In this document: one piece after another, positions 15,518 to 33,760 of the stretch
Numbering within the stretch: position 1 is the stretch's first letter
How the letters are laid out: every line of letters starts with the position of its first letter
Source: a phage
DNA length: 50,013 bases
Sequence record: OZ346186.1
Strand: one strand, 5' to 3'
The notes under the pieces: model-generated
What the model was told of the DNA's origin: nothing
Seen by the model: the letters and a program-made list of their open reading frames with translations, nothing else
The model's database searches: none
Position numbers and translations under genes: made by a program

Positions 15518-18500
15518 ATGGCTGAAAATATGATAACGGGCAGTAAGGGTGGATCATCAAAACCTTATGTTCCGAAAGAGATGGAAGATAACCTGATCTC
15601 AATCAACAAAATCAAAATACTTCTTGCCGTTTCCGATGGTGAGTGCGATCCAAGTTTTACACTTCGCGATCTGTATCTTGATGATGTTCCGGTAATTGCA
15701 GACGACGGAACTGTTAACTACCAGGGTGTGAAAGCTGAATTTCGACCTGGAACGCAGACGCAAGATTACATCCAGGGATTTACTGACACATCAAGCGAAG
15801 TGACGCTGGCGCGTGACATTACTACATCAAATCCTTATGTAATTTCTGTAACCAACAAAACATTATCGGCTATCAGAATCAAAATGCTAATGCCAACAGG
15901 CATTAAGCAAGAGGATAACGGCGATCTTGTCGGCGTTAAGGTTACTTATGCTGTTGATATGGCTGTTGACGGAGACTCTTACAAAGAAGTATTGCTAGAC
16001 ACCATCGAAGGTAAAACGCGTTCCGGTTACGACAGAAGCCGAAGGATTGACCTTCCGGCATTTAATGATCGCGTATTGCTTAGGGTTAGAAGGGTTACGG
16101 CAGACAGCGCATCCTCTCGCGTTACTGATCTGATTAAGCTACAAAGTTACGCTGAGGTTATTGATGCAAAATTCCGTTATCCTCTGACTGGTCTTGTATA
16201 CGTTGAATTTGACAGTGAGTTGTTCCCTAACCAGATCCCTAACATTTCAATCAAGAAGAAATGGAAGTTAATTAATGTTCCGAGCAATTACGATCCGGTA
16301 ATGCGAGAGTATCACGGTTCATGGGATGGTACTTTCAAGAAAGCGTGGTCGAACAATCCGGCGTGGGTTCTTTATGACATTATCACAAACCAGCGATACG
16401 GATTAGATCAGCGAGAACTTGGCGTGCAGGTTGACAAATGGAGTCTTTACGAAGCGGCGCAATACTGCGATCAGAAAGTGCCGGATGGAAAAGGCGGTAC
16501 AGAGCCGCGTTATCTATGCGACGTTGTGATTCAAAGCCAGATTGAGGCTTATCAGCTTATTCGTGATATTTGCTCAATCTTCCGAGGCATGAGCTTTTGG
16601 AATGGCGAGAGCTTGTCAATCGTCATTGATAAGCCGCGCGATCCGTCGTACATCTTCACCAATGACAACGTTGTTGATGGTGATTTTCAGTACACAACAG
16701 CAAGCGAAAAGAGCATGTACACGCAGTGCAACGTGACGTTCGACGACGAACAAAACATGTACCAACAGGACGTAGAGGGCGTATTCGACACCGAGGCAGC
16801 ATTGCGATTTGGATACAATCCTACAAGCATAACAGCGATTGGATGTACACGCAGGAGTGAGGCTAATCGGCGCGGTCGATGGATACTAAAAACTAACTTG
16901 CGCAGCACTACGGTAAACTTTGCTACTGGACTGGAAGGCATGATCCCATCAATAGGTGATGTGATTGCTATTGCTGACAACTTTCACAGCAGCAACCTTA
17001 AGTTAAACCTATCAGGGCGCGTGATGGAAGTTTCAGGCTTGCAGGTGTTCGCTCCGTTTAAGATTGACGCGCGACCAGGTGATTTCATTATCATCAACAA
17101 GCCAGACGGGAAGCCAGTTAAGCGCACAATCTCAAAAGTAAGCGGTGACGGAAAAACCATTGAGCTAAATATTGGGTTTGGATTTGAGGTTAAACCTGAC
17201 ACGGTTTTTGCAATCGACCGCACTGATATTGCATTGCAGCAATACGTTGTAACGAGTATCGGCAAAGGTGATGATGATGATGAATTTACATACTCCATCA
17301 CGGCTGTTGAATATGACCCGAACAAATACGACGAGATTGATTATGGAGTAAACATTGACGACAGGCCAACTTCAATTGTCCAGCCTGACACAATGGCAGC
17401 GCCTGAAAATGTGCAAATATCCTCCTACTCGCGAATTGTCCAGGGTGCAAGCGTTGAAACAATGGTTGTGTCGTGGGATAAAGTACCTTACGCATCGCTG
17501 TATGAAATGCAGTGGCGAAAAGGTGATGGCAACTGGCTGAATACACCACAGACTGCAAACAAAGAAATTGAGGTTGAAGGTATTTATTCAGGAAACTACC
17601 AGGTAAGGGTTAGATCTGTTTCTGCTTCAGGTTCGACGTCGCCGTGGTCCAGAATTGTAACAGCTTCACTGACTGGTAAGGTAGGAGAGCCAGGCGCGCC
17701 AGTTAACTTAACTGCATCCGACAATGAGGTGTTTGGCATTCGTGTTAAGTGGGGGATGCCAGAAGGCAGCGGAGACACGGCATACATTGAGCTTCATCAG
17801 TCGCCGGATGGAACGGCTGAAAACTCAAGCCTGTTAACTCTGATCCCATATCCACAATATGAATACTGGCACGGTACGCTTCCGGCTGGTCATGTTGTAT
17901 GGTATAGAATCCGCAGTGTTGACAGAATCGGCAACGTTTCCGGATGGACTGATTTTGTTAGAGGCATGGCTTCAGATGATGTGGAGGCTGTTTTAGGCAA
18001 TATTCTTGATAAGATTTTTGATACCGAAGCAGGGAAGGATCTGAAAGAGAATGCCATTGATAGCGCAAACAAAATCAAGGATCAGGCGCAAAGCATCATT
18101 CAAAACGCATTGGCGAATGATGCAGACGTTAGGATTATGAGGAAGGAAAACGGAAAACGCAAAGCCGAATTCAGGCAATCAATACAGTTGATCGCAGATG
18201 AAACTGAGGCGCGCGTTACCGCAATGACGCAACTCAAGGCTGAATTTGACGAGGAAATAACTAGCGAAGTAACGAGGCTTGATCAGGCAATTGCAACAGA
18301 ATCGGAAACGCGAGCAACAGCCATTGAGGAATTGAAATCACAGATTGGAGATGATATTCAGGGGCAGTTAACGAGAGTTGAGGAGGCGATTGCAAGCGAA
18401 ACAGAGGCGCGCGTTTCTGCTGACACAGCATTAACAGCGAAGTTTGGAGATGTTGAATCAGCGTTGACGGAAAAACTTGATTCATGGGCTGGCGTTAATG

Positions 18501-18943
18501 GAGTTGGCGCACAGTACGCAATGAAACTTGGATTGACATACAACGGTCAGAAGTACAGTGCTGGTATGGTGATGCAGCTTTCGCAGGGTTCATCCGGCCT
18601 TATTTCGCAGATTTTGTTTGATGCGAACAGGTTCGCTATCATGACAAGTTCGACCGGAGGGTCGTATACATTGCCTTTTGTGGTTGAAAATAACCAAGTT
18701 TTCATTAACAGCCTGTTAGTGAAAAACGGATCAATCACAAACGCCATGATCGGTAACTTCATCCAATCAAACAATTACGTTTGGAATCAAACAGGATGGA
18801 GGCTGGATAAAAACGGAACGTTTGAAAATTATGGTTCTACTCCTGGAGAGGGGGCCATGAAAATGACAAGCGAAACGATCAGCGTTAGGGATGCAAACGG
18901 CGTTTTGCGTGTTCAGATTGGTAGGCTTACTGGTACGTGGTAA
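15518..18943 (+). CDS. central tail fibre / host specificity protein (lambda gpJ-like)
   Basis: 1141 aa, last gene of the M-L-K-I-J block; FN3-like segment and coiled-coil repeats near C-terminus. Confidence 0.8.
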   Translation: MAENMITGSKGGSSKPYVPKEMEDNLISINKIKILLAVSDGECDPSFTLRDLYLDDVPVIADDGTVNYQGVKAEFRPGTQTQDYIQGFTDTSSEVTLARDITTSNPYVISVTNKTLSAIRIKMLMPTGIKQEDNGDLVGVKVTYAVDMAVDGDSYKEVLLDTIEGKTRSGYDRSRRIDLPAFNDRVLLRVRRVTADSASSRVTDLIKLQSYAEVIDAKFRYPLTGLVYVEFDSELFPNQIPNISIKKKWKLINVPSNYDPVMREYHGSWDGTFKKAWSNNPAWVLYDIITNQRYGLDQRELGVQVDKWSLYEAAQYCDQKVPDGKGGTEPRYLCDVVIQSQIEAYQLIRDICSIFRGMSFWNGESLSIVIDKPRDPSYIFTNDNVVDGDFQYTTASEKSMYTQCNVTFDDEQNMYQQDVEGVFDTEAALRFGYNPTSITAIGCTRRSEANRRGRWILKTNLRSTTVNFATGLEGMIPSIGDVIAIADNFHSSNLKLNLSGRVMEVSGLQVFAPFKIDARPGDFIIINKPDGKPVKRTISKVSGDGKTIELNIGFGFEVKPDTVFAIDRTDIALQQYVVTSIGKGDDDDEFTYSITAVEYDPNKYDEIDYGVNIDDRPTSIVQPDTMAAPENVQISSYSRIVQGASVETMVVSWDKVPYASLYEMQWRKGDGNWLNTPQTANKEIEVEGIYSGNYQVRVRSVSASGSTSPWSRIVTASLTGKVGEPGAPVNLTASDNEVFGIRVKWGMPEGSGDTAYIELHQSPDGTAENSSLLTLIPYPQYEYWHGTLPAGHVVWYRIRSVDRIGNVSGWTDFVRGMASDDVEAVLGNILDKIFDTEAGKDLKENAIDSANKIKDQAQSIIQNALANDADVRIMRKENGKRKAEFRQSIQLIADETEARVTAMTQLKAEFDEEITSEVTRLDQAIATESETRATAIEELKSQIGDDIQGQLTRVEEAIASETEARVSADTALTAKFGDVESALTEKLDSWAGVNGVGAQYAMKLGLTYNGQKYSAGMVMQLSQGSSGLISQILFDANRFAIMTSSTGGSYTLPFVVENNQVFINSLLVKNGSITNAMIGNFIQSNNYVWNQTGWRLDKNGTFENYGSTPGEGAMKMTSETISVRDANGVLRVQIGRLTGTW

Positions 18944-18950
18944 AATCAAA

Positions 18951-18973
18951 GCGGGGCATTTGCCCCGCATTTA
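18951..18973 (+). terminator. terminator-like hairpin after J-like gene
   Basis: gcggggca tt tgccccgc then ATTTAT. Confidence 0.5.
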
Positions 18974-18986
18974 TGGAGGTTTAATA

Positions 18987-19292
18987 ATGGCTGAATATGG
19001 TGTTTCAACGTGGGATGCTAACGGGAAGTATAACAACTACGGAATCAAGCCAGTTTCCGTTGTTGGTGTCATTAGCCTTGCGGCTGGTCAGACAAGCGGA
19101 TCGTGGAGCTTTAGCATTCCAAGTGGTTTTAAGGTTGGGTATGTTGTTTCGCTTGATGAGGGTGCTAGAGGGGTTGGAAGGGAAATAGTAGCATCTGGAA
19201 ACACAATAAGAATCAGTCCTACATCTTCAGTTGGTGCAAATAGATATTCTTCTTCAAAGTGTGAGTTAGTTGTTTTTCTTGAGAGGGCTTAA
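18987..19292 (+). CDS. hypothetical tail-associated protein (MAEYG N-terminus)
   Basis: 101 aa from ATG 18987 (SD ggagg); AGG/AGA/ATA-rich codon usage. Confidence 0.5.
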   Translation: MAEYGVSTWDANGKYNNYGIKPVSVVGVISLAAGQTSGSWSFSIPSGFKVGYVVSLDEGARGVGREIVASGNTIRISPTSSVGANRYSSSKCELVVFLERA

Positions 19293-19293
19293 A

Positions 19294-19935
19294 ATGGCTG
19301 AATATGGAGCAATGTTATCTTTATCAAATGGGAATCCATTTATCACACCAAAATCAACGCCATTTTGCTTATATGGCAAGTACACTTATTCATCTTCTGG
19401 CACTTCTGCCTATCATAGCGCAAGCGCAAATATACCATTGAATCAATCTTATCCATGTATGGCATTTATAAAAACAACAAACACACAGCAGCCAACTGCA
19501 TTAATAGCTTACAGGAATGGTGGCAACATTTATGTAAACGGAGGCAATCCATACGGGCAATCATTTACAATGACTGTTTATATATTTGCCATATTCCCTC
19601 AAACTCTACCCAAATATGGTATGGCTATATGGGATGCAAGCGGCAAGTTGGTTTTAACTAATGAAAGCAGGGTGCTAACAGATCTTGTTACAATTGGTAC
19701 TCCTGGTTCTTCAGGTGGAACGAATATAGATCAAACGTTATCTGGTTCTTATGCCGTTTGCCCTTCAAGGCTTGGTGCGGTTGTAGGCATGGGTGCTTCT
19801 GACATATATACATCATGCAGGTATGATGGTTCAAGCACAAGGATAGGTGCAGCAAGGACAACGCCAGGAACAGGATCTATAACAAATAACGGAAATTCAA
19901 TAATTGCAATAAGGACTGATATTTACGACCAATGA
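19294..19935 (+). CDS. hypothetical tail-associated protein (MAEYG N-terminus, paralog-like)
   Basis: 213 aa; shares MAEYG start and a YG.AIWDASGK segment with previous gene; AT-rich. Confidence 0.5.
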   Translation: MAEYGAMLSLSNGNPFITPKSTPFCLYGKYTYSSSGTSAYHSASANIPLNQSYPCMAFIKTTNTQQPTALIAYRNGGNIYVNGGNPYGQSFTMTVYIFAIFPQTLPKYGMAIWDASGKLVLTNESRVLTDLVTIGTPGSSGGTNIDQTLSGSYAVCPSRLGAVVGMGASDIYTSCRYDGSSTRIGAARTTPGTGSITNNGNSIIAIRTDIYDQ

Positions 19936-19964: not shown

Positions 19965-20192
19965 TTACATACTGCAATCAGCGTTTTTAAAGTTATCAAT
20001 ACTTACCCACTGAAAATTAAACGGATATCCAGCCTTAACAAGAGTGCGGTCGCCAACTCGTTTTACTCCAAAAATAGCAACTGAATACTGCATACCGCTA
20101 TTTTCATAAATAGCCGTGCATTCACGCTTAGGCATATTTGCGCAACCAGTCAGGGTTGCGGCTGCAATCAAAACGGCGATTAATTTTTTCAT
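19965..20192 (-). CDS. lipoprotein, Cor-like superinfection-exclusion candidate
   Basis: 75 aa, lipobox LTGC after 16-aa signal peptide; located just after tail genes as cor is in T1/phi80-type phages; preceded by box promoter. Confidence 0.5.
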   Translation of the reverse strand: MKKLIAVLIAAATLTGCANMPKRECTAIYENSGMQYSVAIFGVKRVGDRTLVKAGYPFNFQWVSIDNFKNADCSM

Positions 20193-20223
20193 CTTGGTAT
20201 CTCCTTAGTTGTTGTTGGTTGCA

Positions 20224-20267
20224 ACTATACACGATCTTGCGGCGGTCGTTTAGCAAAAAGTGCTATT
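20224..20267 (-). promoter_or_regulatory. conserved box (variant) + TATAGT, promoter cassette for Cor-like lipoprotein gene
   Basis: minus-strand box 20249-20267, -10-like 20224-20229, 18-nt spacer. Confidence 0.5.
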
Positions 20268-20340
20268 CTGTTCTTTTTGTTTTCCTGCGTTCTCAAATCT
20301 GCGGAGGCGTAAATTTAGCGCAAAAAGTGAGCAACAATAG

Positions 20341-20520
20341 AGCGTAATAAATACAGATAAATATATATATATATATATAAATCAATAAGTTAGCAGTATA
20401 TATATTTATATTTGTTTTTTCTTGTTATCTATGTTTTGTGTGATTTTGTGTGTCTGGTAATTTTATGTGGTTGTGTATGTGTCAGTGATTGTGTGTGTCT
20501 ATATATCTATATACGGCGCA
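20341..20520. repeat. AT-rich (TA)n and GT-rich low-complexity region with IHF-like site AATCAATAAGTTA; homolog of 40501-40720
   Basis: (TA)9 at 20361-20379; 15-mer aaatcaataagttag at 20379-20393; TGTG-rich 20431-20500. Confidence 0.6.
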
Positions 20521-20635
20521 AATGGAGGAACAAGAGAACAAAAAGACAACAAAGATATTTATCAATCACTTACATGTAAATTTTGTTATCCGATTCGCCT
20601 GGAACGTTGTTAGAACAGAAAAAACAAAATAACTG

Positions 20636-20663
20636 TTGACTAAACGCATTAAATAGCTAAAAT
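20636..20663 (+). promoter_or_regulatory. sigma70-like promoter TTGACT-16-TAAAAT upstream of exonuclease gene
   Basis: hexamers read directly at 20636-20641 and 20658-20663. Confidence 0.45.
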
Positions 20664-20692
20664 GCAGGCATACCAACAAACGAGGGCAAATA

Positions 20693-21754
20693 ATGAATAA
20701 GTTTATGGCGTACACCAGCGAAGAAATGAGCAACGAGCTTTATCACGATCCAGAAGCGTGGACGGCTGATTATGTTAGCGGTTCAAGCCTGGCAGAGATT
20801 TACAGCACATGCCCGGCAGCGTGGAAGTTCAAGCCGCGTGACGATAAGAGCAAGGCGCTAGTTTTTGGTACGCAGTCGCATACCAACTTTGAAAGCAAGG
20901 AGCTTTTCGAAAAAACTTATCGCCGTGCGCCAGCGCCAGAAGACTTTAAGGATCTGATAACCAGCCAAACGGCGCTTGCTGCAAAGCTGAAATCATTTGG
21001 CCTGAAAGGTACAACCGGAAAGACTTACCCCGAACTTATAAAAATGATGGTTGACTGCGGAGAAGACCTTAACGTCATGTGGTTAATCGACATGATCGCA
21101 GAAAGTCAGGCCAGGGCCGATGGGGTTCAGTTAATCGAGGCTAAAGATTACGATTCGTGCGTGGCAATGCGCCAGGTTCTGGAATCAATACCGGAACATA
21201 ACGCATGTATGAATAGCAAGACGGCACAGCGTGAATTATCGTTGTTCGGTGAAATTAACGGCGTAAAAGTCAAAGTGCGATGCGATCACGTTGACGTAAC
21301 AAAGAACGTCACCGCAACGCTGATTGATGGTTACGATGAAAAAGGCCAGCCGATTTGCCGCGATATTATTTATCCAGAGGCCATTGTGATCACAGACTAC
21401 AAAACTACAATGAGCGCGAATCCGGCTGAGTTTATGCGCCTGGCTTACAATCACGGCTATTATTTGAAAATGGCGTTGCAATGTGATTTATTCAGAAAAG
21501 CGTATCCAGAAGAAAAGCGACCTATAGTTGTGCGACTGTTAGCGCAAGAGAAGAAAGAGCCTTATTTGCCGTTGGCTTTCCGCATGAATAGCGAGCAGTT
21601 GAAGATCGGGCGCATTCAGTACATGAGCGTGATTAACCAGTTTGCCATGTGCCAGCAACATGACGTTTGGCCTTCGTATTCAAACGGTGAGCCTGAGGTT
21701 TGCCTTGATACTCCTGATTGGGTGCGCCGCCAGTTTAAGCAATATCTTATTTAA
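20693..21754 (+). CDS. recombination exonuclease (PD-(D/E)xK, RecE/lambda-Exo-like, putative)
   Basis: 353 aa; ITDYK motif; adjacent to Erf and SSB genes. Confidence 0.45.
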   Translation: MNKFMAYTSEEMSNELYHDPEAWTADYVSGSSLAEIYSTCPAAWKFKPRDDKSKALVFGTQSHTNFESKELFEKTYRRAPAPEDFKDLITSQTALAAKLKSFGLKGTTGKTYPELIKMMVDCGEDLNVMWLIDMIAESQARADGVQLIEAKDYDSCVAMRQVLESIPEHNACMNSKTAQRELSLFGEINGVKVKVRCDHVDVTKNVTATLIDGYDEKGQPICRDIIYPEAIVITDYKTTMSANPAEFMRLAYNHGYYLKMALQCDLFRKAYPEEKRPIVVRLLAQEKKEPYLPLAFRMNSEQLKIGRIQYMSVINQFAMCQQHDVWPSYSNGEPEVCLDTPDWVRRQFKQYLI

Positions 21755-21835
21755 ACAGCACAAATAGCTAAACAAATGAAAAATGCGGTGTTATAATTCA
21801 CCGCACAAGTTAACAACAAGCGTGAGGAAATAAAC

Positions 21836-22114
21836 ATGGAAAACAAGCAAGTGTCAGAGGTGGCAGTTCATATCAACAATTTTGCAACTGGCATGGCTAT
21901 GTTGCTTCGTGACTTTGTGGCGCCACTTGATCCAACTGCAGGCGAAGAAGAAATGGAGTACATCAGAAAAGTAATTGATGCGGTCGATAACGTCGTACTT
22001 ATTGCAACAATGAGCGAAGACAACGATGAAGCAATCAAGGCGGTAAAAGAAAGTTCTGATCGCATGATGGAAAATCTGATTAAATTACACACCAAAGAAG
22101 AAACAAAGCACTAA
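21836..22114 (+). CDS. hypothetical acidic protein
   Basis: 92 aa, Asp/Glu-rich; SD gtgagga; lies between exonuclease and Erf. Confidence 0.55.
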   Translation: MENKQVSEVAVHINNFATGMAMLLRDFVAPLDPTAGEEEMEYIRKVIDAVDNVVLIATMSEDNDEAIKAVKESSDRMMENLIKLHTKEETKH

Positions 22115-22159
22115 CAGCAATAAGGCGGCGAAAGCCGCCATGAATTATGGGAATTAATC

Positions 22160-22816
22160 ATGAAACTATCAGAGCAATTCGACAAGGTTTTACCAGCGCT
22201 GCATAAGGCTCGCAGCTTGTTTGTGAAGGTCAAAAAGGACAAGCAAAACACTCACCTTAAAAATCGTTACGCAACGCTTGATGCAGTTCTTGATGCAATC
22301 ACTCCGGCATTGAATGATAACGAGCTAATGTTGATGCAGGACATGATTGAAAGCGAACAACCTAACCGCATCAAAGTTGAGACAACCGTTCTTCATGTTT
22401 CCGGTCAGTGGGTGAAATTTTACGCAGAGCTACCAATCGTTAAAAACGATCCTCAAGGTGTCGGATCTGCATTCACATACGCGCGTCGTTATGCAGCCGC
22501 AGCCGCATTTGGCTTAAGCCAGGCAGACGATGACGCACAGATTGCCGTTAAATCTGCAAACGACTGGAAGCGTGACATTGAGAAATGCGAAAGCGTAAAC
22601 GAATTACAAGAAGTGCTCAAATCAGCATGGAAGGCAAGCGATCCGGCAAGCAAGCAGGTAATTAAAGAGCATTACGAAAAACGCAAAGCAGAGCTTGAGA
22701 TCGGAAAAGCACGAGGATTTAATCCGGCGCAACCACGGCAAAATCTCGCCACTACAGAAGTTGACATAAAAAACGACGAGCAAGTAAAATCACAAAGCAT
22801 AACTGATTTTGAATAA
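22160..22816 (+). CDS. Erf-family single-strand annealing protein
   Basis: 218 aa with [12 protein letters not shown] segment typical of ERF; followed by SSB. Confidence 0.65.
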
Positions 22817-22823
22817 TTGACAT

Positions 22824-22845
22824 GGGGCGCTTGCGCCCCTTTCTT
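22824..22845 (+). terminator. terminator-like hairpin after Erf gene
   Basis: ggggcgc..gcgcccc + TTTCTT. Confidence 0.5.
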
Positions 22846-22860
22846 ACAGGAGAATAAATA

Positions 22861-23301
22861 ATGCATATTATTACTGGTGAGATCAGAAAAGAGCCGCGAG
22901 TAAAACAAATGCCTAACGGCAGCACACTTTATGTGGTTGAGCTTTCAGAGCGATACAAAGATAAAGATGGAAACTGGCAATATACAAACTACAGTTTCTT
23001 TTTTAATGCCAAAACAGAAGGTCTTAATGGTTGGTATGCTGAGGCGTTTCAGGTTGGAAAGGTTATTTCTGTATCTTGCGATACGCTACGCATAGAAACG
23101 CGTGAATATAACGGAAAGATGTATTCAAGTTTAATGCCTGGTGGATTCGCAAATCTTATATTCAGCCAGCGCGGAGAAGGCCAGCCGCAACAGCAACAAC
23201 AAGGAGGATGGGGCCAGCCACAGCAACAGAATCAACAGCAACAACAACCCAAACAAAGCAATCAGCCTCCTATGGACTTTGACGACGACATTCCTTTCTG
23301 A
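22861..23301 (+). CDS. ssb: single-stranded DNA-binding protein
   Basis: 146 aa; Gln/Gly-rich linker and acidic C-terminal tail DFDDDIPF typical of SSB. Confidence 0.8.
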   Translation: MHIITGEIRKEPRVKQMPNGSTLYVVELSERYKDKDGNWQYTNYSFFFNAKTEGLNGWYAEAFQVGKVISVSCDTLRIETREYNGKMYSSLMPGGFANLIFSQRGEGQPQQQQQGGWGQPQQQNQQQQQPKQSNQPPMDFDDDIPF

Positions 23302-23306
23302 TCAGC

Positions 23307-23330
23307 AAAGGGGCATTACGCCCCTTTTTC
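23307..23330. terminator. bidirectional terminator between SSB and minus-strand gene
   Basis: AAA ggggc attac gcccc TTTTT. Confidence 0.6.
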
Positions 23331-23573
23331 ACTTTCAGCCATTCCAAGCACGGCAATAACCTTAACAGCAATTCTCTTTGCAAGTTCAGTTTGATGAGCG
23401 TTCAGCTTTCCAGTGGTCATTATTGACAACATTCCGCTCATACTTCCAAGCCCGTTAAAATCTGACATTGCCGATTTCATTATTGATATTGGCGAATGAC
23501 CTTCATCAGCTATTTTGTGCGCTCTCTCTGACAGGTCTTTAACTACCTGATCTATTCCTTCACTTTTCGTCAT
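23316..23573 (-). CDS. hypothetical protein
   Basis: 85 aa; SD aagga upstream of ATG at 23573. Confidence 0.5.
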   Translation of the reverse strand: MTKSEGIDQVVKDLSERAHKIADEGHSPISIMKSAMSDFNGLGSMSGMLSIMTTGKLNAHQTELAKRIAVKVIAVLGMAESEKGA

Positions 23574-23609
23574 TTACTTTTCCTTCAGGAGTTGATTGCT
23601 GTTCTGGCA

Positions 23610-23699
23610 TTACAGGCCACCAACAGCACCACCAAGTCCAGCCGCGCCAGCTTCGCCACCAAAACCACCACCAGTAGGGAGTAAAGTCATATCTGACAT
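23610..23699 (-). CDS. Gly-rich 29-aa peptide (MSDMTLLPTGGGFGGEAGAAGLGGAVGGL)
   Basis: hand-translated; SD gaggaa 6 nt upstream of ATG; not in ORF track (below 60 aa). Confidence 0.35.
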   Translation of the reverse strand: MSDMTLLPTGGGFGGEAGAAGLGGAVGGL

Positions 23700-23834
23700 A
23701 GTAAATTCCTCTTTGACGTTAAGAAAATTAAAAAAAATTTGCAACATTTATGTTACGACAAAGAGTATGCGCCTAACTGTCAGGAATAGATATAAAGCAT
23801 TTGTAAGCGATATGTAAGCAACTAGCATAAAGAC

Positions 23835-23862
23835 GAAAAAAAGCGCAGCATGAGCCGCGCTT
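23835..23862 (-). terminator. rho-independent terminator after tail fibre gene
   Basis: minus strand aagcgc..gcgctt followed by T-tract (plus-strand A-tract 23835-23840). Confidence 0.5.
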
Positions 23863-23877
23863 TGGTTAAAAATATTG

Positions 23878-26073
23878 TTATTTATTGAGCAGTGCAGCAA
23901 CAGCCGCCTTTAATTCGTCTATCTCCTTTTGCTGGTTTTCGATCATTCCTCCCATGTAAACCATAGCGCAAGCCATATCAGCCATGATAACGTTATTGTC
24001 AAGCGCTAATGTATCATCTGCTTTGTCAACAACAATTTGACGATCCACATATTCTTCACCTTCATCATTAACGCCTATAACATCTGCAAAAATGTCCCCG
24101 CCAGGTACTAGTTTTACATATTCAGGATCTATTTTTAGCAGATCCTGAGCTATCATCCCGAATCGCTGGATGTTGCTTCCATTGTATTTAAACATTGTAG
24201 GCAGCCACTGCATAACGCGATCATAGCTTTCTTTTCCATCTGTATAAATTATATCGTGCTTTAAATCCCTGTCAGAGTTAGCGGCCTTTTGAAAAATGAA
24301 ATTTCCACTTGATGACCATGTAGTTATATCGTTTGATGCTGGCTGGAACTGGAAGTTACAGAAAAAATTACCATCACCACGAAGCCTTAACGAGCAAAAA
24401 GGCCATGCATTATTTCCTTGTGGAATAAGACCCCAAGTTGCGCGAATAGGATAGCCACCAGTTGACTGTGTTCCCCATGAAAGACCTGGCGCCCAACCAC
24501 CGTCATTGTTAGCAACAATCTCACCCCAAACAAGAGCATTACCCCAATAATTTGGATCGTCCCACCCCATTTGTTGAGTTCTTCCGGTGTATTGAGCAGA
24601 ATGCGTTCTGCCGTCAGGGTAAAACTTGTGCATATAGCTTTGAACACCATGCTTATACAGTTCAATCCCAAAAGACTCAATTTGGGCAGTATCACCTCTG
24701 ATCAAACCTGCGATAGCGTAATCGTTATACCAGTTGTAACGACTTACACCAGTCCATGTGTTTATCGGCGGGTTCATAATTGAAAATAGTTGTGACGGAT
24801 TGTGTTCATTTCCTTCAGCATAAAAACCAGCCCCAGGAGCTAAGGAAATACTTTTCGCCCCTGAAAAAGTACCATTTTCATTAAACTGATAATACTGTGA
24901 TGCACCATTATGAAATACGCCTATTGTATGCTTTCCTACGCCTACTTGAGTCTCAAAATAAGACTGAGAAGATCCAATATCTTCACCTTGTGTACTCTTT
25001 AGTTTTGAATGGTATATACCTGCGTTTGCAGTATTTGCATTTTCCGTTTCATTTTCAACATTAAGGCTTAGAAATTTTGGTGCATGTTTTTCGCCAAGCC
25101 CTATATTGTTTCTGATGCCATTTGCGTCAATAGCTCCAGTACCACCAGAAGAAATAGCTAAAGGCACAGTTTCAAATGAGCCAGATCCTGAAGTGTCTCT
25201 CTGAAAAACAAGAAGACCATCATTTCTGATAACAAGCCTATATTCTCTATTTCTAGAGTACAAGATAGTATGCACGTAATCCTGAAAAAATGAATCAATG
25301 CTAAGCGTCTGGCGAGCAGATTCGATGTCAGAAAGATCTTTAAGGTTCTGATCCTTATGCAATAGATTTTCAGGATTTACCTGTTGCGCCCACTGGCGAG
25401 CTTCATCACGCGCAGTTTCAGCGCCAGCCTTTGCATTATTTGCCTCAACGGCATGATTTCCAGCAGTATCACGCGCCAATTCAGCCTGATCGCGAGCACC
25501 GAAAGCCTCTTGTTTAATGGCTTCCGTTTCGATTATAGCTGAATCTTTAATCTGTTGCGTTTGCGCCTTGATTGCGTCAGTGTCTGATTTAATCTGGTTT
25601 GTTTCAGCAACAGCAGAATCCTTTATCTGCTGAGTGTTGTTTTTCAGTTGTTCAGTAGCAGCACGATCATTGGCCGTTTTCTCTGCATCACCTTTAACCT
25701 GATTAGCCAGATCTTGCAACTGTTTCAGGTCAAAGTTTTTGAAAAATTCAATAGCTTCCTCGATCTGAGTTTCTTTGCTTTGGTAGTAGCGCAGAGTTTC
25801 CGCAACATCTTGCGCCAGGCCGTCAACCGTGATTGAGTCATGCAGCAAAATAATGTAATTGCTTCGCCCAATTTCAGCTCCTCCAGTTGTGATGGCGCGG
25901 ATTTGTGTATCGCTGATAACTTCACTGATCACAGCCGCTTGGAATGGTGCATCAATGAAAAAGATTGTTGCACCAGGACGAATGAGCGTTAGTTGCTCTC
26001 GCCATTTCGTTTCGTATCCAGTTATATAACCTTGAGCGTCCATTGACGCCTGTCCGGTTCTGTAAATTGCCAT
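23878..26073 (-). CDS. tail fibre with C-terminal intramolecular chaperone (peptidase S74-like) domain
   Basis: 731 aa from ATG 26073 (SD gggaga); C-terminus LKHDIIYTDGKESYDRVMQWL...GMIAQDL resembles S74 chaperone domain; repeats in N-terminal third; track ORF start at 26172 reads through terminator. Confidence 0.75.
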   Translation of the reverse strand: MAIYRTGQASMDAQGYITGYETKWREQLTLIRPGATIFFIDAPFQAAVISEVISDTQIRAITTGGAEIGRSNYIILLHDSITVDGLAQDVAETLRYYQSKETQIEEAIEFFKNFDLKQLQDLANQVKGDAEKTANDRAATEQLKNNTQQIKDSAVAETNQIKSDTDAIKAQTQQIKDSAIIETEAIKQEAFGARDQAELARDTAGNHAVEANNAKAGAETARDEARQWAQQVNPENLLHKDQNLKDLSDIESARQTLSIDSFFQDYVHTILYSRNREYRLVIRNDGLLVFQRDTSGSGSFETVPLAISSGGTGAIDANGIRNNIGLGEKHAPKFLSLNVENETENANTANAGIYHSKLKSTQGEDIGSSQSYFETQVGVGKHTIGVFHNGASQYYQFNENGTFSGAKSISLAPGAGFYAEGNEHNPSQLFSIMNPPINTWTGVSRYNWYNDYAIAGLIRGDTAQIESFGIELYKHGVQSYMHKFYPDGRTHSAQYTGRTQQMGWDDPNYWGNALVWGEIVANNDGGWAPGLSWGTQSTGGYPIRATWGLIPQGNNAWPFCSLRLRGDGNFFCNFQFQPASNDITTWSSSGNFIFQKAANSDRDLKHDIIYTDGKESYDRVMQWLPTMFKYNGSNIQRFGMIAQDLLKIDPEYVKLVPGGDIFADVIGVNDEGEEYVDRQIVVDKADDTLALDNNVIMADMACAMVYMGGMIENQQKEIDELKAAVAALLNK

Positions 26074-26130
26074 GCGTTTTCTCCCATGTTGCATGTTAAT
26101 GTCAATGCAGATAATAGCATTTGATAAGGC

Positions 26131-26154
26131 AAAAAAAAACCCCGCAATGCGGGG
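26131..26154 (-). terminator. rho-independent terminator between primase and tail fibre genes
   Basis: minus strand ccccgc att gcgggg + T9. Confidence 0.65.
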
Positions 26155-26172
26155 TAAAAGTAGCAGTGACAT

Positions 26173-27105
26173 TTAGAGAAGAGATTCAGGTTTGTAAACC
26201 TTCCTCTCTATCCCTTGCCTGTAATTATCATTAATCGGCATCATAATTTCAAGACCTCTTTCCTCAGCAGCAATGATCGCGTCACGGTCTGTACTCTTAC
26301 AGACAACTCGCATTCTTCTGTTGCCTTTATACCTGTAAGCTACAATCTCAATGTTAGTTGCATCAAAGCAGGCCCAAACCTCTTGACCAGTTGCAAGGTG
26401 AATATGTTGCGCATCAATCCAGTCAACGCAAAGATAGATCGTCTTATCTGTGCTTCCTGTTCTCACAATTGACCCGCGCGTGTAGTCCTTTGCGAGAAAA
26501 GACTTATTACCTTCTTCATCAATGAAAAGCACATTGCACATTTCATCATCAATTTCATCTGAATGTACCAGGTAACATGGGAGCGCGTGAATGTATCGAC
26601 CATCTTTAACGCCGCATTCATAATGACCATCTTCAGGCGGGTATATTCCTTCATATGTGCTTAACGGCGTGCGATCAAATTTTAGTGTTTTTGACATAAC
26701 GCGATCGCAGCATTCATGGCTTGCCTGTTTCCCAAATGAATAACCAGAATCACGAGATACTCGCTTATTTGCCTTGATTCTATAGTCCTGCGGAACTTTT
26801 CCAAGAAAGCGGCCCAAAATATTGATCACTTCGCTGTAAGGTTCTCCGGTTAGTTTCATGATCCAACCAATTCCAGTATCATTACCGCACACGTTGCAGA
26901 TCGCACCGCCATCGCCTTTTTTATCGCCAAGTTTATCCGTCCACCTGAAGCGATCCTTTCCGCCGCAGTGGGGGCAAGATTGATGCTTGCCGTTAAAAAC
27001 TTCATTTGGAAGACCGCAAATACTTTGTAGCGCCTCACGCCATAATCCCTGCATATATGGGAGAACATCTTCCTTTTGATAAACCATAAAGTTTTCGTTA
27101 TTCAT
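26173..27105 (-). CDS. DNA primase (zinc-ribbon type, putative)
   Basis: CPHCGGKDRFRW...CNVCG zinc-binding motif typical of phage primase N-termini; start ATG 27105 preferred over TTG 27120. Confidence 0.5.
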   Translation of the reverse strand: MNNENFMVYQKEDVLPYMQGLWREALQSICGLPNEVFNGKHQSCPHCGGKDRFRWTDKLGDKKGDGGAICNVCGNDTGIGWIMKLTGEPYSEVINILGRFLGKVPQDYRIKANKRVSRDSGYSFGKQASHECCDRVMSKTLKFDRTPLSTYEGIYPPEDGHYECGVKDGRYIHALPCYLVHSDEIDDEMCNVLFIDEEGNKSFLAKDYTRGSIVRTGSTDKTIYLCVDWIDAQHIHLATGQEVWACFDATNIEIVAYRYKGNRRMRVVCKSTDRDAIIAAEERGLEIMMPINDNYRQGIERKVYKPESLL

Positions 27106-27162
27106 ATGCACCTCAAACAAAAAAAAGCCTGACAGATGATAACATCATGCCAGGCATTGTTT

Positions 27163-27636
27163 TTAGCAATTAGTGCTTTCAGGTTTATACAGGAATCCTC
27201 CAGGTTCATAATCTGACATTCTTACCACTCGCAACATTTCACGCTTATCACATCTCTTTGTGAGCGGTTTGCCATTGGAATCAAATCGCAGATCTGGACG
27301 GCAGAATGACGCGCGATAGCCTTGACAACCATATTTCTTGTAATCGTTATGCACCTTTTGAGCGCCAGCGGCTGAAATCATACCGCGAACGCGCCACTGA
27401 TTTACAGTTTGCTGGCTAACGTTAAGACGCTTTGCCATTGCTGACACGCTGCCGTAATACTCAATAAGAATGTCAAGCCGTGCTTTTAGTCCGGCGCGCA
27501 CTTCATCTTTTAAAACATAGTATCCTGTAGGGCGCTTGCGCTTTTTCTTATCTTTACCCCGTCGAGTTCCGTTATTGCCATTAATTGTGCGCTTGTCAAT
27601 CTTGCCTGTTGATACTGCGATTCGCTGTTCTTTCAT
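27163..27636 (-). CDS. HTH DNA-binding protein (putative transcription regulator)
   Basis: 157 aa; basic N-terminus (KDKKKRKR) and helix-turn-helix-like AKRLNVSQQTVNQWR. Confidence 0.45.
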   Translation of the reverse strand: MKEQRIAVSTGKIDKRTINGNNGTRRGKDKKKRKRPTGYYVLKDEVRAGLKARLDILIEYYGSVSAMAKRLNVSQQTVNQWRVRGMISAAGAQKVHNDYKKYGCQGYRASFCRPDLRFDSNGKPLTKRCDKREMLRVVRMSDYEPGGFLYKPESTNC

Positions 27637-27648
27637 TATTCATTCTCC

Positions 27649-27692
27649 AATAGCATTTTTTGTTAAACGATGATTTAATGATTGTGTATTAT
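27649..27692 (+). promoter_or_regulatory. conserved box AATAGCATTTTTTGTTAAAC + 18-nt spacer + TATTAT (promoter cassette for helicase operon)
   Basis: box 27649-27668, -10-like 27687-27692; divergent from HTH regulator gene. Confidence 0.5.
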
Positions 27693-27725
27693 ACACGCCA
27701 AATGGCATTACTCAAAGGTTTTAGA

Positions 27726-29765
27726 ATGATTCCAAACATTGAAAAGCAAATATCAGCACTTGGTGAAGCGGTAATTAAATCCATTCAGGAGCGATTCACT
27801 GTTGGCGAGATTGTGCCTTACCCTTACCAGTGCGTTGCATACGCTGAGATCGCAAAGCGTATGAAAAATTATGAGCATCCATTCTTTGTTAAAGCGTCCG
27901 TATCGGCTGGCAAAACATTGATGTTTGCAATGGTTGCTCACCAGTGCCGGAAAATGGGATTAAAAATGATGGTCCTTGCTCGCCAGGCTGAGATTGTGGA
28001 TCAGGATTCTGAAGAGATAACAAATCTTGGCGTGCCGAACTCAATCTATTGTGCAGGACTGAAGACAAAAAGCGCATACTTTCCGATTGTTGTTGGTTCT
28101 GAGGGCACTGTAGTTAATGGGCTGTTTAAAGCGCTTGGCGACTATGTTCCGCACGTTATCGGGATTGACGAGTGTCACCAGGTGGATTGGGAAGACCTTG
28201 CCGACGCCATAGAGAAAGACGAATCATTTTTACAAATGACAACGAAGAAAGGCGAAAAAGTACCAAATCCAGATTATGACATAACGAGCGATAACGAATG
28301 CGAAGAGTTCCTGATTGGTGAGGATGGCTTACCAATGGAGGGAACAGGCCGCACGCAATACACTGTTATTATCATGGAAATGATGCGACGTTGCAGGAAA
28401 GCATATGGTCATGAACTGCGCATCTTTGGTATGACTGGTTCGGAGTTTCGCGGAGTAGTCCCGATCCTGGTAGAAGACAAAAAACAGAAAGGATTCTGGC
28501 GTGAACAGGTTACTAATATTGACACCAACTACCTGATCAAATTCGGTTCTGTTGTGCCAACAAATTTTGGCGACGTTGGCGATCTAGGGTATGACCTTTC
28601 AGAGTTTGAGGCATCCAGCGAGGATGGCGTCGCAGACTTTGACGCTAAAACGCTTCGCAGGATGGAACAAAAAATTCATGAAGAAGCGACCATGACAAAG
28701 CGCATCATGGCGAAAGTTCACGAGATCTGTAAAAACCGTAACGGCGTACTTGTGACATGTGCAGGAGAAAGGCATTGCAAAGAGGCAGCGGCGGCATTGC
28801 CACCTGGAACGACTTACAGGATCATTACTGGTAAGACTGGCGACAACCAGCGCAAGGAGTGGTTGAAGGAAGCATACGAGGGGAAGGTAAAATACATCTT
28901 CCAGGTTCAGGCGCTAACAACTGGCGTTAACGTGCCGTTTTGGGATACGTCGGTTATATTGCGTAAGATTGGATCTCTTACGTTGCTGATTCAGCTTTTA
29001 GGGCGCGGAATGCGACTACTTAAGAAGTGGCATAAGGAGCAAGGATTCCAGAAAGATGATCATCTCGTCATGGATTTTTCAGGAACGATGGACGAGCTAG
29101 GGGAGCTTTATTTTGATCCGATACTGGAACAGGCGCAGCACCAGAAGCGATTCAGAAATGGTAAAGATCCGAAGCCTTGTCCTATTTGCGGAACTCTTAA
29201 CAGCTATTATGCTCGTCGCTGTATGCACGTAGACGAAGACGGCAACAGATGCGAGTGGTTCTTTAAATTCAGGACATGTGACGATCAGGTTGACCCACGC
29301 ACTAAAAAGATTATTCATCGCGGTTGTGGAACGAAAAATGATATTGCGGCCAGGGTGTGCAGACATTGCGACATGTCATTGATTGACCCTAACGAGAAGT
29401 TGAGCGGAAAGCACTACACAAAAAACGACTGGTTCCAGGTGCAATCTTTCTCGGTTGACATGACGAAAAACCAGAAAGGGATAATATTTAATTATGAGCT
29501 TTCCGATGGCATAGACACTTTCAGGGCGAGAGAGATATTTTTCCCTGAATCTGAGAGCCAAATTTGCCGCGCAAAATGGCGAAGCGTTGCTCTTAAGCAC
29601 ATACCAGATCGCCGCGTTGCTGGCATGGTGGCGAGCTATCGTAATGCACGAAAAATAATGCAATATGTTAATCACATTATGCCGCCATCGCGTGTGACTC
29701 ACCGCAAGACTAGCAAGGGAGAAGATAATTTGTACAAGAAGGAATTTAATTATGGCAATGACTGA
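27726..29765 (+). CDS. SF2 helicase (DEAH-box) with C-terminal Cys-rich zinc ribbons
   Basis: Walker A SVSAGKT, DEcH box GIDECH; start ATG 27726 chosen from spacing to box promoter; track ORF from 27660. Confidence 0.75.
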   Translation: MIPNIEKQISALGEAVIKSIQERFTVGEIVPYPYQCVAYAEIAKRMKNYEHPFFVKASVSAGKTLMFAMVAHQCRKMGLKMMVLARQAEIVDQDSEEITNLGVPNSIYCAGLKTKSAYFPIVVGSEGTVVNGLFKALGDYVPHVIGIDECHQVDWEDLADAIEKDESFLQMTTKKGEKVPNPDYDITSDNECEEFLIGEDGLPMEGTGRTQYTVIIMEMMRRCRKAYGHELRIFGMTGSEFRGVVPILVEDKKQKGFWREQVTNIDTNYLIKFGSVVPTNFGDVGDLGYDLSEFEASSEDGVADFDAKTLRRMEQKIHEEATMTKRIMAKVHEICKNRNGVLVTCAGERHCKEAAAALPPGTTYRIITGKTGDNQRKEWLKEAYEGKVKYIFQVQALTTGVNVPFWDTSVILRKIGSLTLLIQLLGRGMRLLKKWHKEQGFQKDDHLVMDFSGTMDELGELYFDPILEQAQHQKRFRNGKDPKPCPICGTLNSYYARRCMHVDEDGNRCEWFFKFRTCDDQVDPRTKKIIHRGCGTKNDIAARVCRHCDMSLIDPNEKLSGKHYTKNDWFQVQSFSVDMTKNQKGIIFNYELSDGIDTFRAREIFFPESESQICRAKWRSVALKHIPDRRVAGMVASYRNARKIMQYVNHIMPPSRVTHRKTSKGEDNLYKKEFNYGND

Positions 29766-30171
29766 TAAAGGCGATTATCTGGAGTTTTACGAAAGAGATC
29801 CGACAGATACTCTGAAAGAGGAATCGCACCAGATCGGGGCGTTTCAATGGGTAACTTATGCTCATCCTGAATTACTGGCATGGCATACGAAAAACGAGGG
29901 CGACAAGGGAATCGCCACCGCAATGATGGATCAGCAAGCCGGACTCGTTAAGGGCGTAAGTGATTTTATCATCCTGATTGGATTAAAAGGCCGTTACCCG
30001 TTTGCAGCAATTGAGATGAAACGCGTCAATAAGTCAGGCAAGGGGAAGGCTTCACCAGTCAGCAAGGAGCAAAAAGCCTTCTTGCGCCGTGTGCGTGAGC
30101 TTGGCGGATTCGCTGCCGTAACATACGGATATAAGCAATTCATGATCGCGGTAGAATACATGATGAAATAG
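29752..30171 (+). CDS. VRR-NUC domain nuclease
   Basis: 139 aa; D...E.K nuclease core (DFIILIG...AIEMKR) typical of VRR-NUC, commonly paired with phage helicases. Confidence 0.6.
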   Translation: MAMTDKGDYLEFYERDPTDTLKEESHQIGAFQWVTYAHPELLAWHTKNEGDKGIATAMMDQQAGLVKGVSDFIILIGLKGRYPFAAIEMKRVNKSGKGKASPVSKEQKAFLRRVRELGGFAAVTYGYKQFMIAVEYMMK

Positions 30172-32910: not shown

Positions 32911-32953
32911 ACTTTTAATCATTAAAATATAAATATAAATCATCAATTTAATT

Positions 32954-32983
32954 GGGCGTGGCATTTTGCTTCGCCCTTTTTTT
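32954..32983 (+). terminator. rho-independent terminator before lysis cassette
   Basis: gggcg..cgccc + T7. Confidence 0.55.
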
Positions 32984-33056
32984 ATTCCTTTTTGTGCGTT
33001 CAATGGTTAGGATACAATCAATTAATTGTTGACTTTTATATACAGGAGATCTAATC

Positions 33057-33272
33057 ATGAAAGATTTTTTAAACGCTGCAACTTCCGGCACTGGCGGCGC
33101 GTCAATCACTGGCGCGGTAACTGGTCAAACAACTATCGCAATAGCCAGCTTAGTTTTGATGGCTGCATTTGGTATGTGGGGCGCTTATCTTCGCTGGCGT
33201 GATAGTAAGGCGCTACGTGACGCGCTTGAATGCGGTGATATTAAGAAAGCTATTGAGATCAGAGGTAAATAA
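33057..33272 (+). CDS. holin (single-TMD, pinholin-like)
   Basis: 71 aa, one hydrophobic segment, charged C-terminus, immediately upstream of endolysin. Confidence 0.6.
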
Positions 33273-33760
33273 TGAGTATAAAACAAAGAGTGACCGCTGC
33301 GGCTTTTGGCGTTGCTCTTGCCCTTACTTCTCCGCTACTGGAGGAAATAGAAGGAGTAAAATATAAGCCGTACAAAGATATTGCTGGAATATGGACGGTT
33401 TGCGCCGGAATAACTGGACATGACGTAATACCAGGTAAAACGTACACACAGAGAGAGTGCGATGCGCTACTGGCAAAGCATATCAAGATCGCAAAGGATG
33501 AAGTTGATAAGCGTGTGAAGGTTGACATTCCTGATACAATGCGCGCGGCGATGTATTCATTCACATACAATGCTGGCACTGGCGCTTTTAGAAATTCAAC
33601 CATGCTTAAGCTGATTAATAACGGTCGTTATATGGAAGCGTGCGATCAGTTATGGCGATGGACAAAATACACCAATCCAAAAACAGGAAAGAAAGAAACG
33701 TCTAAAGGACTGCGCAACCGCCGCGCGGTGGAATTTAAATATTGCATTAAGGATCTGTAA
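33272..33760 (+). CDS. endolysin, T4-lysozyme-type muramidase with SAR-like N-terminus
   Basis: E-x8-D-x5-T catalytic spacing ([16 protein letters not shown]); Gly/Ala-rich weakly hydrophobic N-terminal segment. Confidence 0.75.

Follow-up and report, generated by a model that had tools for sequence, protein, structure and literature searches.

A lateral tail fibre gene in a conserved slot of a T1-like phage, with a distal module probably replaced by recombination inside the gene

The window, meaning the whole 50,013-nucleotide stretch of phage DNA analysed here (record OZ346186.1), represents a Hanrivervirus-like phage of the T1 type, a coliphage of the Drexlerviridae with 97% identity to vB_EcoS_G29-2 and 96% to slyngel over 10 kb. 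Between its SSB and primase genes lies the gene of a 731-residue tail fibre, a position and identity which the earlier note had recognised and which the neighbouring coordinates bear out (Table 1). The mechanical open reading frame covers 23878-26172 (764 aa); the ATG at 26073, preceded by GGGAGAA (a GGGAG ribosome-binding site), gives a protein of 731 residues with the N-terminus MAIYRTGQ, as in G29-2 and slyngel, where the annotated genes measure 2196 nt. PHROG tail-fibre families match the protein (best E=2.4e-190), and its closest relatives are the tail fibres of G29-2 (YP_009901604) and slyngel, both of 731 aa, with 97.5% and 96.2% amino acid identity, respectively. These share the position, both terminators and the allele, and depart from the window only in point differences and, close to the 3' end, in a single small patch (23801-24000) of 83-85% identity to G29-2.

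Table 1. Features of the fibre locus, in positions of the window.
Feature	Position	Strand	Basis or remark
SSB	22861-23301	+	C-terminal end DDDIPF
85-aa open reading frame	23316-23573	-	between SSB and fibre gene
Terminator-like hairpin, downstream of fibre gene	23840..23863	-	10 pairs (6 GC), then T-run
Lateral tail fibre gene, 731 aa and stop codon	23878..26073	-	open reading frame with ribosome-binding site, PHROG, G29-2 homologue
C-terminal intramolecular chaperone (Peptidase_S74), aa 601-731	23881..24273	-	follows predicted autocleavage site Ser600; holds 3' breakpoints
Distal shaft and presumed receptor-binding region, aa about 251-600	24274..25323	-	horizontally mobile module
Helical, coiled-coil-like shaft, aa about 127-250	25324..25695	-	bears QQIKDSA repeats; holds 5' recombination breakpoints
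N-terminal virion-anchor domain, aa 1 to ~126	25696..26073	-	conserved in Drexlerviridae and other small siphoviruses; follows backbone
TGCTATTAT, extended -10-like motif, possible fibre-gene promoter	26111..26119	-	by eye; conserved in relatives
Terminator-like hairpin, after primase, upstream of fibre gene	26139..26155	-	7 pairs (6 GC), then T9
Primase	26173-27120	-	

The fibre protein is composed of four successive parts. The anchor is homologous to that of other Drexlerviridae lateral tail fibres, with 65% identity to KP36 over aa 1-126 and 36% to the T1 fibre over aa 1-330, and tblastn with it returned 1003 phage records, where most matches from Klebsiella Webervirus span only aa 1 to ~129. 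An N-terminal collar-attachment region of the T5 type was not found, since aa 1-142 have no counterpart in the T5-like phage VEc33 and carry the Drexlerviridae anchor instead. In the shaft, QQIKDSA occurs in exactly two copies (aa 148 and 173) within a helical stretch rich in Q, A, E and K of imperfect 11-14-residue periodicity; the underlying DNA holds three 17-nt copies at spacings of 33 and 42 nt, and TRF detected no tandem DNA repeat array in the fibre gene. The repeats previously described as N-terminal thus exist, but are situated in the shaft beyond the anchor rather than at the extreme N-terminus.

Cleavage sites of S74 chaperones, as known from endosialidases and T5 pb1, consist of a conserved serine followed by an acidic/Lys motif. 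In the fibre protein, Pfam places Peptidase_S74 (PF13884) at aa 600-654 (E=3.3e-8, 34.2 bits against a cut-off of 22), in line with the C-terminal domain that had been proposed from the letters, and the motif S600-DRDLKHDI is present, with its S, D, R, D and K invariant in an alignment of 35 sequences. Autocleavage is predicted after Ser600. An AlphaFold2 monomer prediction of aa 255-731, made from a 35-sequence alignment, is built of beta-strand units (pLDDT 73.4, pTM 0.38, best at model residues about 90-240). Foldseek of this model against the PDB gave no match at E < 0.001, with a best TM-score of at most 0.16. Because a monomer model is unsuitable for an intertwined trimer, no fold is drawn for the tip.

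That the protein acts enzymatically, as a tailspike or depolymerase, instead of serving as a passive fibre is improbable. It was on endosialidase tailspikes that S74 chaperones were originally described, and phmmer against PDB sequences aligns the first 179 residues with capsule depolymerases of Klebsiella phages (7VYV, 7VZ3, 7LZJ; E about 6e-51, 5.7e-51 for 7VYV). However, PDB matches are confined to these residues, that is, to the common anchor and the start of the shaft, Pfam finds no hydrolase, lyase or beta-helix family in aa 180-600, and the beta-strand model of the distal part has no significant match to any enzyme. The Webervirus depolymerases (including KP36 gp49), homologous in anchor and shaft start, differ in possessing capsule-degrading domains, with no S74 chaperone homology detected. 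The nearest homologues are instead lateral fibre genes of T5-like phages; among solved T5 pb1 structures, phmmer gave no hit at E < 0.01.

The position of the gene is shared widely. An SSB gene followed by fibre and primase genes on the opposite strand is found in T1 (ST27/ST26/ST24), atuna, MikeNSara, slyngel, SFP17, vojen, egaa and JakobBernoulli, with slot and orientation identical in T1 and in each Hanrivervirus and Warwickvirus genome examined, as in all Tempevirinae examined. In this slot, recE/erf/ssb on one side and primase on the other enclose the fibre gene, which runs against the tail operon; the latter, its J-like gene (15518-18943) included, occupies the plus strand. Webervirus KP36 shows a rearranged variant in which, unlike in the window, the recE-erf-ssb block shares the strand of the fibre gene and is placed on its opposite side. 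High conservation and complete synteny have been described for the flanks of the fibre gene (Maffei et al., 2021; PMC8594841, S1C Fig). A location convergent with recE-erf-ssb, downstream of primase and opposite to the tail operon, is ancestral for T1-like phages. The separation from the tail operon that the earlier note had stressed is correct as a description of placement; it is no evidence of recent acquisition, because the slot is fixed in T1, Warwickvirus and all Hanrivervirus examined.

Terminator-like structures on both sides of the gene were likewise confirmed, a scan finding two minus-strand hairpins. Both sites are annotated as terminators in G29-2, and the one at 26139-26155 is retained in T1, Warwickvirus and Hanrivervirus. 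Between it and the fibre start, the motif TGCTATTAT may be the promoter of the fibre gene, being invariant in 9 Hanrivervirus/Warwickvirus sequences amid varying intergenic bases; T1 lacks it. A sigma-70 -35/-10 scan, whose overall count was near shuffle expectation (15 vs 12.4), did not flag TGCTATTAT and gave no promoter in the interval from the primase terminator to the fibre start.

Comparison with relatives reveals a mosaic within the gene. The same-genus phages SFP17, vojen, egaa and JakobBernoulli are 93-100% identical to the window in the flanks and N-terminus, but give no DNA alignment across about 24300-25530, the exchanged segment as a whole spanning ~24000-25600; their chaperone regions are 67-92% identical to the window. 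Conversely, Warwickvirus atuna and MikeNSara are 91-98% identical in the module and merely 70-83% in the flanks. The 5' breakpoints fall at ~25533-25717, with identity beginning at 25533 (SFP17, JakobBernoulli), 25692 (vojen) or 25717 (egaa). The 3' breakpoints fall at ~23966-24308, where similarity to same-genus phages with other alleles returns at 24308/24267 (about aa 589-602), reaching 92% in the last 100 nt, and similarity to T5-like VEc33 stops at 23966, about aa 703. The parts tracking the backbone lie outside these boundaries: the anchor (first ~125-180 aa, or 375-540 nt), the last 30-40 codons (~100 nt) and both terminators.

Outside the Drexlerviridae, the segment 23966-25160 recurs with nucleotide identities of 88.6% in T5-like VEc33 and 86.9% in Seuratvirus SD04. 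In a lambdoid E. coli prophage, a protein of 77% amino acid identity is encoded at the side-tail-fibre (stf) position after a J-like gene, and database homologues of the module number 166. The module is thus discordant with its flanks in identity and present in unrelated backbones, and these profiles point to a horizontal exchange that is real but internal to the fibre gene. In G29-2 and slyngel, the fibre gene is as similar to the window as the flanks are (96-98%); no fibre exchange has occurred since the window phage diverged from these two.

These data also bear on the extent of the exchanged unit, which the earlier note had taken to be the entire gene bracketed by its terminators, a self-contained host-range cassette recently inserted into the early region. 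The flanking hairpins, the orientation against the tail operon and a whole-gene GC below that of the neighbours all suit that account, which is nevertheless very unlikely. Slot and orientation are those of T1 and the other Tempevirinae, and the terminators, the first 375-540 nt and the last ~100 nt are conserved to the same degree as primase and SSB in same-genus phages with different alleles. Moreover, the N-terminal 130 codons carry backbone codon usage, and identity to G29-2 and slyngel shows no step at the gene borders. What holds of the cassette is that the middle and distal part has moved between phage lineages; placement is identical in T1 and the Tempevirinae examined, and identity of the distal segment is not uniformly high, with all breakpoints internal to the gene.

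Composition, described in the earlier note as AT-rich in the centre, differs clearly only at third codon positions. Total GC of the gene is 0.421 against 0.440 for the window, a weak signal because it reaches only the 12th percentile of equal-length windows. In contrast, GC3 of codons about 100-630 is 0.28-0.31, below all 288 control windows (290 codons each, from 12 other genes of >= 300 aa; mean 0.451, minimum 0.352). The codon log-ratio of the distal module is -0.058 vs +0.198 +/- 0.082 in controls, and that of aa 131-731 lies below all 25 control genes, while the first 130 codons resemble the backbone (GC3 0.415). Low GC3 is however common to all fibre alleles checked at the locus (JakobBernoulli 0.295, egaa 0.309, T1 0.368), and so marks the locus rather than this allele; fibre genes of T5-like, Seuratvirus and Webervirus phages also fall below their own backbones, for which reason it may be a property of fibre genes rather than the mark of a specific donor. 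A T5-like backbone fits the codon usage of the distal module as well as, or slightly better than, the module's own backbone does. The direction of transfer was not read from GC3, a use rejected because every lineage checked has a fibre-gene GC3 below that of its backbone.

That no transfer occurred at all, the distal part having diverged fast in place under diversifying selection with third positions made AT-rich by amino-acid content or weak codon selection, would accommodate this shared low GC3 but is scarcely credible, given that the module is 87-89% identical in nucleotides in Demerecviridae and Queuovirinae while nothing else in the compared loci can be aligned with the window, that it is closer to Warwickvirus than the flanks are, that it is unalignable where same-genus flanks are nearly identical, and that the identity transitions are sharp.

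Very probably, therefore, this is the gene for the lateral (side) tail fibre of a Hanrivervirus-type T1-like phage, residing in its ancestral slot, with the distal module swapped by recombination inside the gene. The conserved anchor would fix the fibre to the tail tip region and be continued by the repeat-bearing helical shaft, while the distal shaft and tip would bind a surface glycan, most likely of the O-antigen type, for reversible primary adsorption, by analogy with the lateral fibres of T5-like phages. The S74 chaperone would drive trimer folding and then be lost through autocleavage after Ser600. Host-range variation would arise by homologous recombination within the gene, with the conserved anchor and shaft serving as one homology arm and the conserved chaperone and 3' end as the other, the module between them being replaced from a pool common to Warwickvirus, T5-like Demerecviridae, Seuratvirus and lambdoid prophages. 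A primary-receptor role for the O-antigen has been proposed for this locus, along with conservation at the far 5' end of the fibre gene only (Maffei et al., 2021; PMC8594841). The fibre is evidently dispensable on some hosts, since the bacteria used to isolate relatives with this allele include K-12 lacking O-antigen (atuna), other E. coli and Salmonella. In the literature searched, no experiment on the receptor of the OSYSP/phiLLS-type allele came to light.

Several known systems resemble the window fibre in one portion and depart from it in another. The T1 fibre ST26 (FibB) agrees in slot, orientation and anchor, its distal two-thirds being unrelated. The lateral (L-shaped) fibres of Tequintavirus VEc33, phiLLS and OSYSP are homologous over the distal 480 aa only; aa 459-935 of VEc33 are 81% identical to aa 250-729 here, and the DNA similarity extends over 1.2 kb with the S74 chaperone included. 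The VEc33 fibre differs in its length (940 aa), its N-terminal attachment region and its last ~28 codons, and its gene adjoins one of the T5 type annotated as 'collar tail protein for L-shaped tail fibre attachment'. ORF54 of T1-like SH6, detected in virions by mass spectrometry (LC-MS/MS), was described as a T1virus/Hk578virus chimera with a T1-type N-terminus and a foreign C-terminus with Peptidase_S74 (Hamdi et al., 2017; PMC5238451); by that description it shares the slot and differs in donor lineage (Hk578virus/Dhillonvirus) and allele. The Drexlerviridae fibre locus of Maffei et al. (2021), with a conserved 5' end and variable remainder, corresponds to the arrangement seen here. Mosaicism of the fibre locus is already published (Hamdi et al., 2017; Maffei et al., 2021), and conceptually nothing is changed, as modular exchange of tail-fibre tips, also at this locus, has been described. 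The value lies mainly in correct annotation, which would identify the phage's host-range determinant for primary adsorption, and in documenting one allele across four siphovirus lineages. For engineering, the gene would most naturally be cut at two junctions, behind the anchor at about aa 125-180 and ahead of the chaperone at about aa 600.

More speculatively, and with rather low probability, a single tip cassette may flow mainly from low-GC T5-like phages to Drexlerviridae, Seuratvirus and lambdoid prophages, with shaft repeats and S74 chaperone as universal recombination arms and the small downstream genes as uncharacterised fibre accessory factors. This would imply one receptor specificity common to virulent and temperate siphoviruses of four lineages. 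As to these small genes, Pfam gave nothing above threshold, the 85-aa frame having a sub-threshold match to Amdase (17.5 bits vs a cut-off of 25.9), and PHROGs places them solely in families without known function. G29-2 and slyngel carry four of them between SSB and fibre gene, a set known in Hanrivervirus and Seuratvirus; three are deleted in the window, which retains one together with a 29-aa gene stub.

Megablast with positions 20000-30000 matched 434 phage records, the best being Escherichia phage vB_EcoS_G29-2 (97.0%, full coverage) followed by Salmonella phage slyngel (96.3%), both belonging to Hanrivervirus (Drexlerviridae, Tempevirinae), T1-like siphoviruses of about 51 kb. The fibre gene lies on the minus strand, 5 kb beyond the plus-strand head and tail block. 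The earlier note had described a 731-aa protein with an S74-type C-terminus, encoded between SSB and primase and flanked by terminators, all of which is confirmed: the start is shared with the G29-2 and slyngel annotations, both neighbours are in place, hairpins occur on either side at sites on which the G29-2 annotators agree, and Pfam Peptidase_S74 matches aa 600-654 (E=3.3e-8; 34.2 bits vs a cut-off of 22). Around the domain start the residues read ...QKAAN-S600-DRDLKHDI, and S, D, R, D and K do not vary across 35 aligned homologues. By PHROGs the protein falls into tail-fibre families (best E=2.4e-190), and the G29-2 record already describes its fibre as 'partially similar to putative tail tip protein [Escherichia phage OSYSP]'. 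As for the proposed N-terminal TQQIKDSA repeats, QQIKDSA is present at aa 148 and aa 173, within a Q/A/E/K-rich helical stretch of loose 11-14-residue periodicity, but no tandem DNA array was found in the fibre gene. The SSB-fibre interval holds an 85-aa ORF and a 29-aa stub.

Coordinates of the fibre gene and of surrounding features
Feature	Position	Strand	Remarks
Packaging, head and tail genes up to J-like protein	1-19935	+	
J-like protein gene	15518-18943	+	
SSB	22861-23301		flanks fibre gene on one side; ends DDDIPF
Terminator-like hairpin	23863-23840	-	hairpin scan; same site marked in G29-2 annotation
Mechanical ORF	23878-26172	-	ORF call
Fibre start ATG	26073	-	GGGAGAA just upstream; 731-aa product
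TGCTATTAT	26119-26111	-	resembles extended -10 element
Terminator-like hairpin	26155-26139	-	hairpin scan; same site marked in G29-2 annotation
Primase	26173-27120		flanks fibre gene on other side

Residues 1 to about 126 are conserved in ~1000 phage records, most Klebsiella matches being limited to this part, and are read here as a putative virion-attachment domain, a role also proposed for the N-terminal part by Maffei et al. (PMC8594841). Residues 1-179 match the N-termini of the solved Klebsiella-phage depolymerases 7VYV, 7VZ3 and 7LZJ (E about 6e-51). Beyond the anchor, aa about 127-250 form a helical repeat shaft, aa about 251-600 are mainly beta-strand units in the predicted model, and aa 601-731 constitute the intramolecular chaperone. 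No significant solved structural neighbour of the distal part was found, a monomer model of a trimer being a poor probe.

The placement of the gene had been taken as a sign of acquisition, which is not borne out. T1 itself carries its tail fibre gene, ST26 (32695-34881), on the minus strand, flanked by ST27 and primase ST24; the gene converges with recE-erf and has a terminator after its 3' end. Order and orientation are unchanged in Warwickvirus atuna and MikeNSara and in Hanrivervirus G29-2, slyngel, SFP17, vojen, egaa and JakobBernoulli. The only exception is Webervirus KP36, where recE-erf-ssb shares the strand of the fibre gene and flanks it at the opposite end, the fibre gene consequently being convergent with the J-like gene. 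Gene order points firmly to an ancestral, fixed position, one already known since the T1 genome annotation; Maffei et al. (PMC8594841) describe strongly conserved flanks in full synteny. Exchange has taken place within the gene, in its middle and presumed receptor-binding part (the distal module).

This is evident from an identity profile in 100-nt steps over 22801-27200 against ten loci. Against G29-2 and slyngel, fibre gene and flanks alike show 96-98% identity, the sole small divergent patch vs G29-2 being 23801-24000. Identity to SFP17, vojen, egaa and JakobBernoulli is 93-100% over SSB, the small ORF, both terminators, primase and the 5' 375-540 nt of the fibre gene, after which the alignment breaks off at 25533, 25692 or 25717 according to the phage. 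In three of these four it returns at 24308 or 24267, the start of the S74 domain, with 67-82% identity across this region and up to 92% over the final 100 nt; in the interval no DNA aligns. Warwickvirus atuna and MikeNSara, on the other hand, are 91-98% identical over 24000-25600 with flanks at just 70-83%. Insertion of the whole gene into the early region as a cassette with its two terminators is contradicted, the terminators and the 5' end of the gene being conserved with the backbone in same-genus phages.

The module also crosses families. Positions 23966-25160 are common to T5-like VEc33 (Demerecviridae, Tequintavirus; 88.6% nt identity) and Seuratvirus SD04 (Queuovirinae; 86.9%). In VEc33 the match is a lateral fibre gene adjoining an annotated 'collar tail protein for L-shaped tail fibre attachment', and its aa 459-935 are 81% identical to fibre aa 250-729. 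A database search gave 166 homologues of aa 255-731, among them 814-aa proteins encoded in E. coli chromosomes (77% identity). One of these belongs to a lambdoid prophage, where it follows a J-like gene and stands at the side-tail-fibre position (E. coli GCA_910664985.1, locus positions 8001-10445); the module therefore circulates in temperate phages too. This prophage adjoins genes whose Pfam matches, together with the K-12 gene order, fit abgT/abgB/abgA/abgR. Judged by breakpoints and cross-family matches, the mobile unit is delimited as roughly aa 180-600, and in some events as far as about aa 700. The proposed horizontally exchanged host-range cassette holds for this internal module, exchanged between lineages, but not for the whole terminator-bracketed gene. 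Breakpoints fall in the conserved anchor/shaft and in the conserved chaperone plus 3' end, which could plausibly serve as homology arms. Mosaicism is itself already known (PMC8594841; PMC5238451), the fibre of T1-like SH6, which carries an S74 domain, having been reported to be a T1virus/Hk578virus chimera (PMC5238451); the useful additions are mapped breakpoints, the four-lineage spread of the allele and quantitative codon evidence.

The AT-rich centre noted by eye is weak in total GC, which for the fibre gene (0.421 vs 0.440) is unremarkable at the 12th percentile among equal-length windows, but clear at synonymous sites. GC at third codon positions (GC3) is 0.28-0.31 at fibre codons about 100-630, lower than in any of 288 control windows, each 290 codons long and taken from the 12 remaining genes that reach 300 aa (mean 0.451, SD 0.039, minimum 0.352). 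The per-codon log-likelihood ratio of the phage's own codon table vs a T5-like backbone table is positive in 25/25 control genes (+0.08 to +0.41, mean +0.198) and backbone-like in the anchor (aa 1-130, +0.148), while the rest of the fibre falls below all 25 (aa 131-250, -0.012; aa 251-600, -0.058; aa 601-731, +0.041). Central-part GC3 of other alleles at this locus is 0.295 in JakobBernoulli, 0.309 in egaa and 0.37 in T1, SFP17 and vojen; in KP36 it is 0.51 vs 0.59 in neighbours, and fibre GC3 is below the phage's own backbone in VEc33 (0.258 vs 0.294) and SD04 (0.284 vs 0.414). Because unrelated alleles and the fibres of other lineages are also low, low GC3 reads as a trait of the fibre gene class or of a shared pool, not the mark of one recent event.

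Regarding function, an O-antigen-type glycan is the probable target, bound reversibly by the fibre, by analogy with T5-like lateral fibres and in line with a proposal for Drexlerviridae (PMC8594841), and a J-associated receptor-binding protein would carry out irreversible binding. The orthologous protein was detected in SH6 virions (PMC5238451). Relatives that share this allele come from isolations on K-12, on other E. coli and on Salmonella, and the fibre is therefore dispensable on rough hosts. O157:H7 was the isolation host of several T5-like carriers, a lead and no more.

The primase-side hairpin ends the regulator-primase transcription unit, and the fibre gene plausibly constitutes a separate one. 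TGCTATTAT is invariant in Hanrivervirus and Warwickvirus amid variable bases and is missing from T1; a generic promoter scan, with overall counts near chance, did not flag it.

Between SSB and fibre, the window lacks 1436 bp present in G29-2, slyngel and most Hanrivervirus (G29-2 locus 4132-5566; window 23574-23877, junction 23613-23619), corresponding to three of four small genes, G29-2 gp55-57 (PHROGs 8329, 9157 and 9288, families with no assigned function). A gp54 homologue (23316-23573) and the stub of gp57 are kept, the latter Gly-rich, with its ATG at 23699 and its stop at the junction; full gp57 has a Gly-rich N-terminus and a Cys-rich C-terminus. Henu8 and several 47-kb records have an identical contiguous junction. 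The four Hanrivervirus genes (G29-2 locus 3828-5653) are syntenic with four of SD04 (locus 2765-4819; 55-69% aa identity), both sets lie downstream of the fibre, and they may encode fibre-associated factors.

The 221-aa gene at 19270-19935, beyond the J-like gene, has the lowest GC (0.393) and GC3 (0.279) among genes of at least 150 aa, under the whole-gene values of the fibre. It may be exchange-prone too, since it falls downstream of gpJ, in the bona fide receptor-binding-protein locus of Maffei et al. (PMC8594841). The AT-richest stretches are 20193-20692, 34001-34500 and 40501-41000 (GC 0.35-0.37), the first being a ~500-bp gap without a convincing gene, between Cor-like exclusion and recE-like genes, and possibly an early promoter or regulatory region. 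G29-2 gp51 (locus 2339-2617; 92 aa, between recE and erf; window homologue 21836-22114) is titled 'tail length tape measure protein' in RefSeq, probably an annotation error given ORF size and position. Lastly, ~20 unannotated GenBank records named 'Campylobacter phage' (MG0656xx; stated host C. jejuni) match this phage at 93-95% identity across the 10-kb query and are probably contaminant or mislabelled coliphages.
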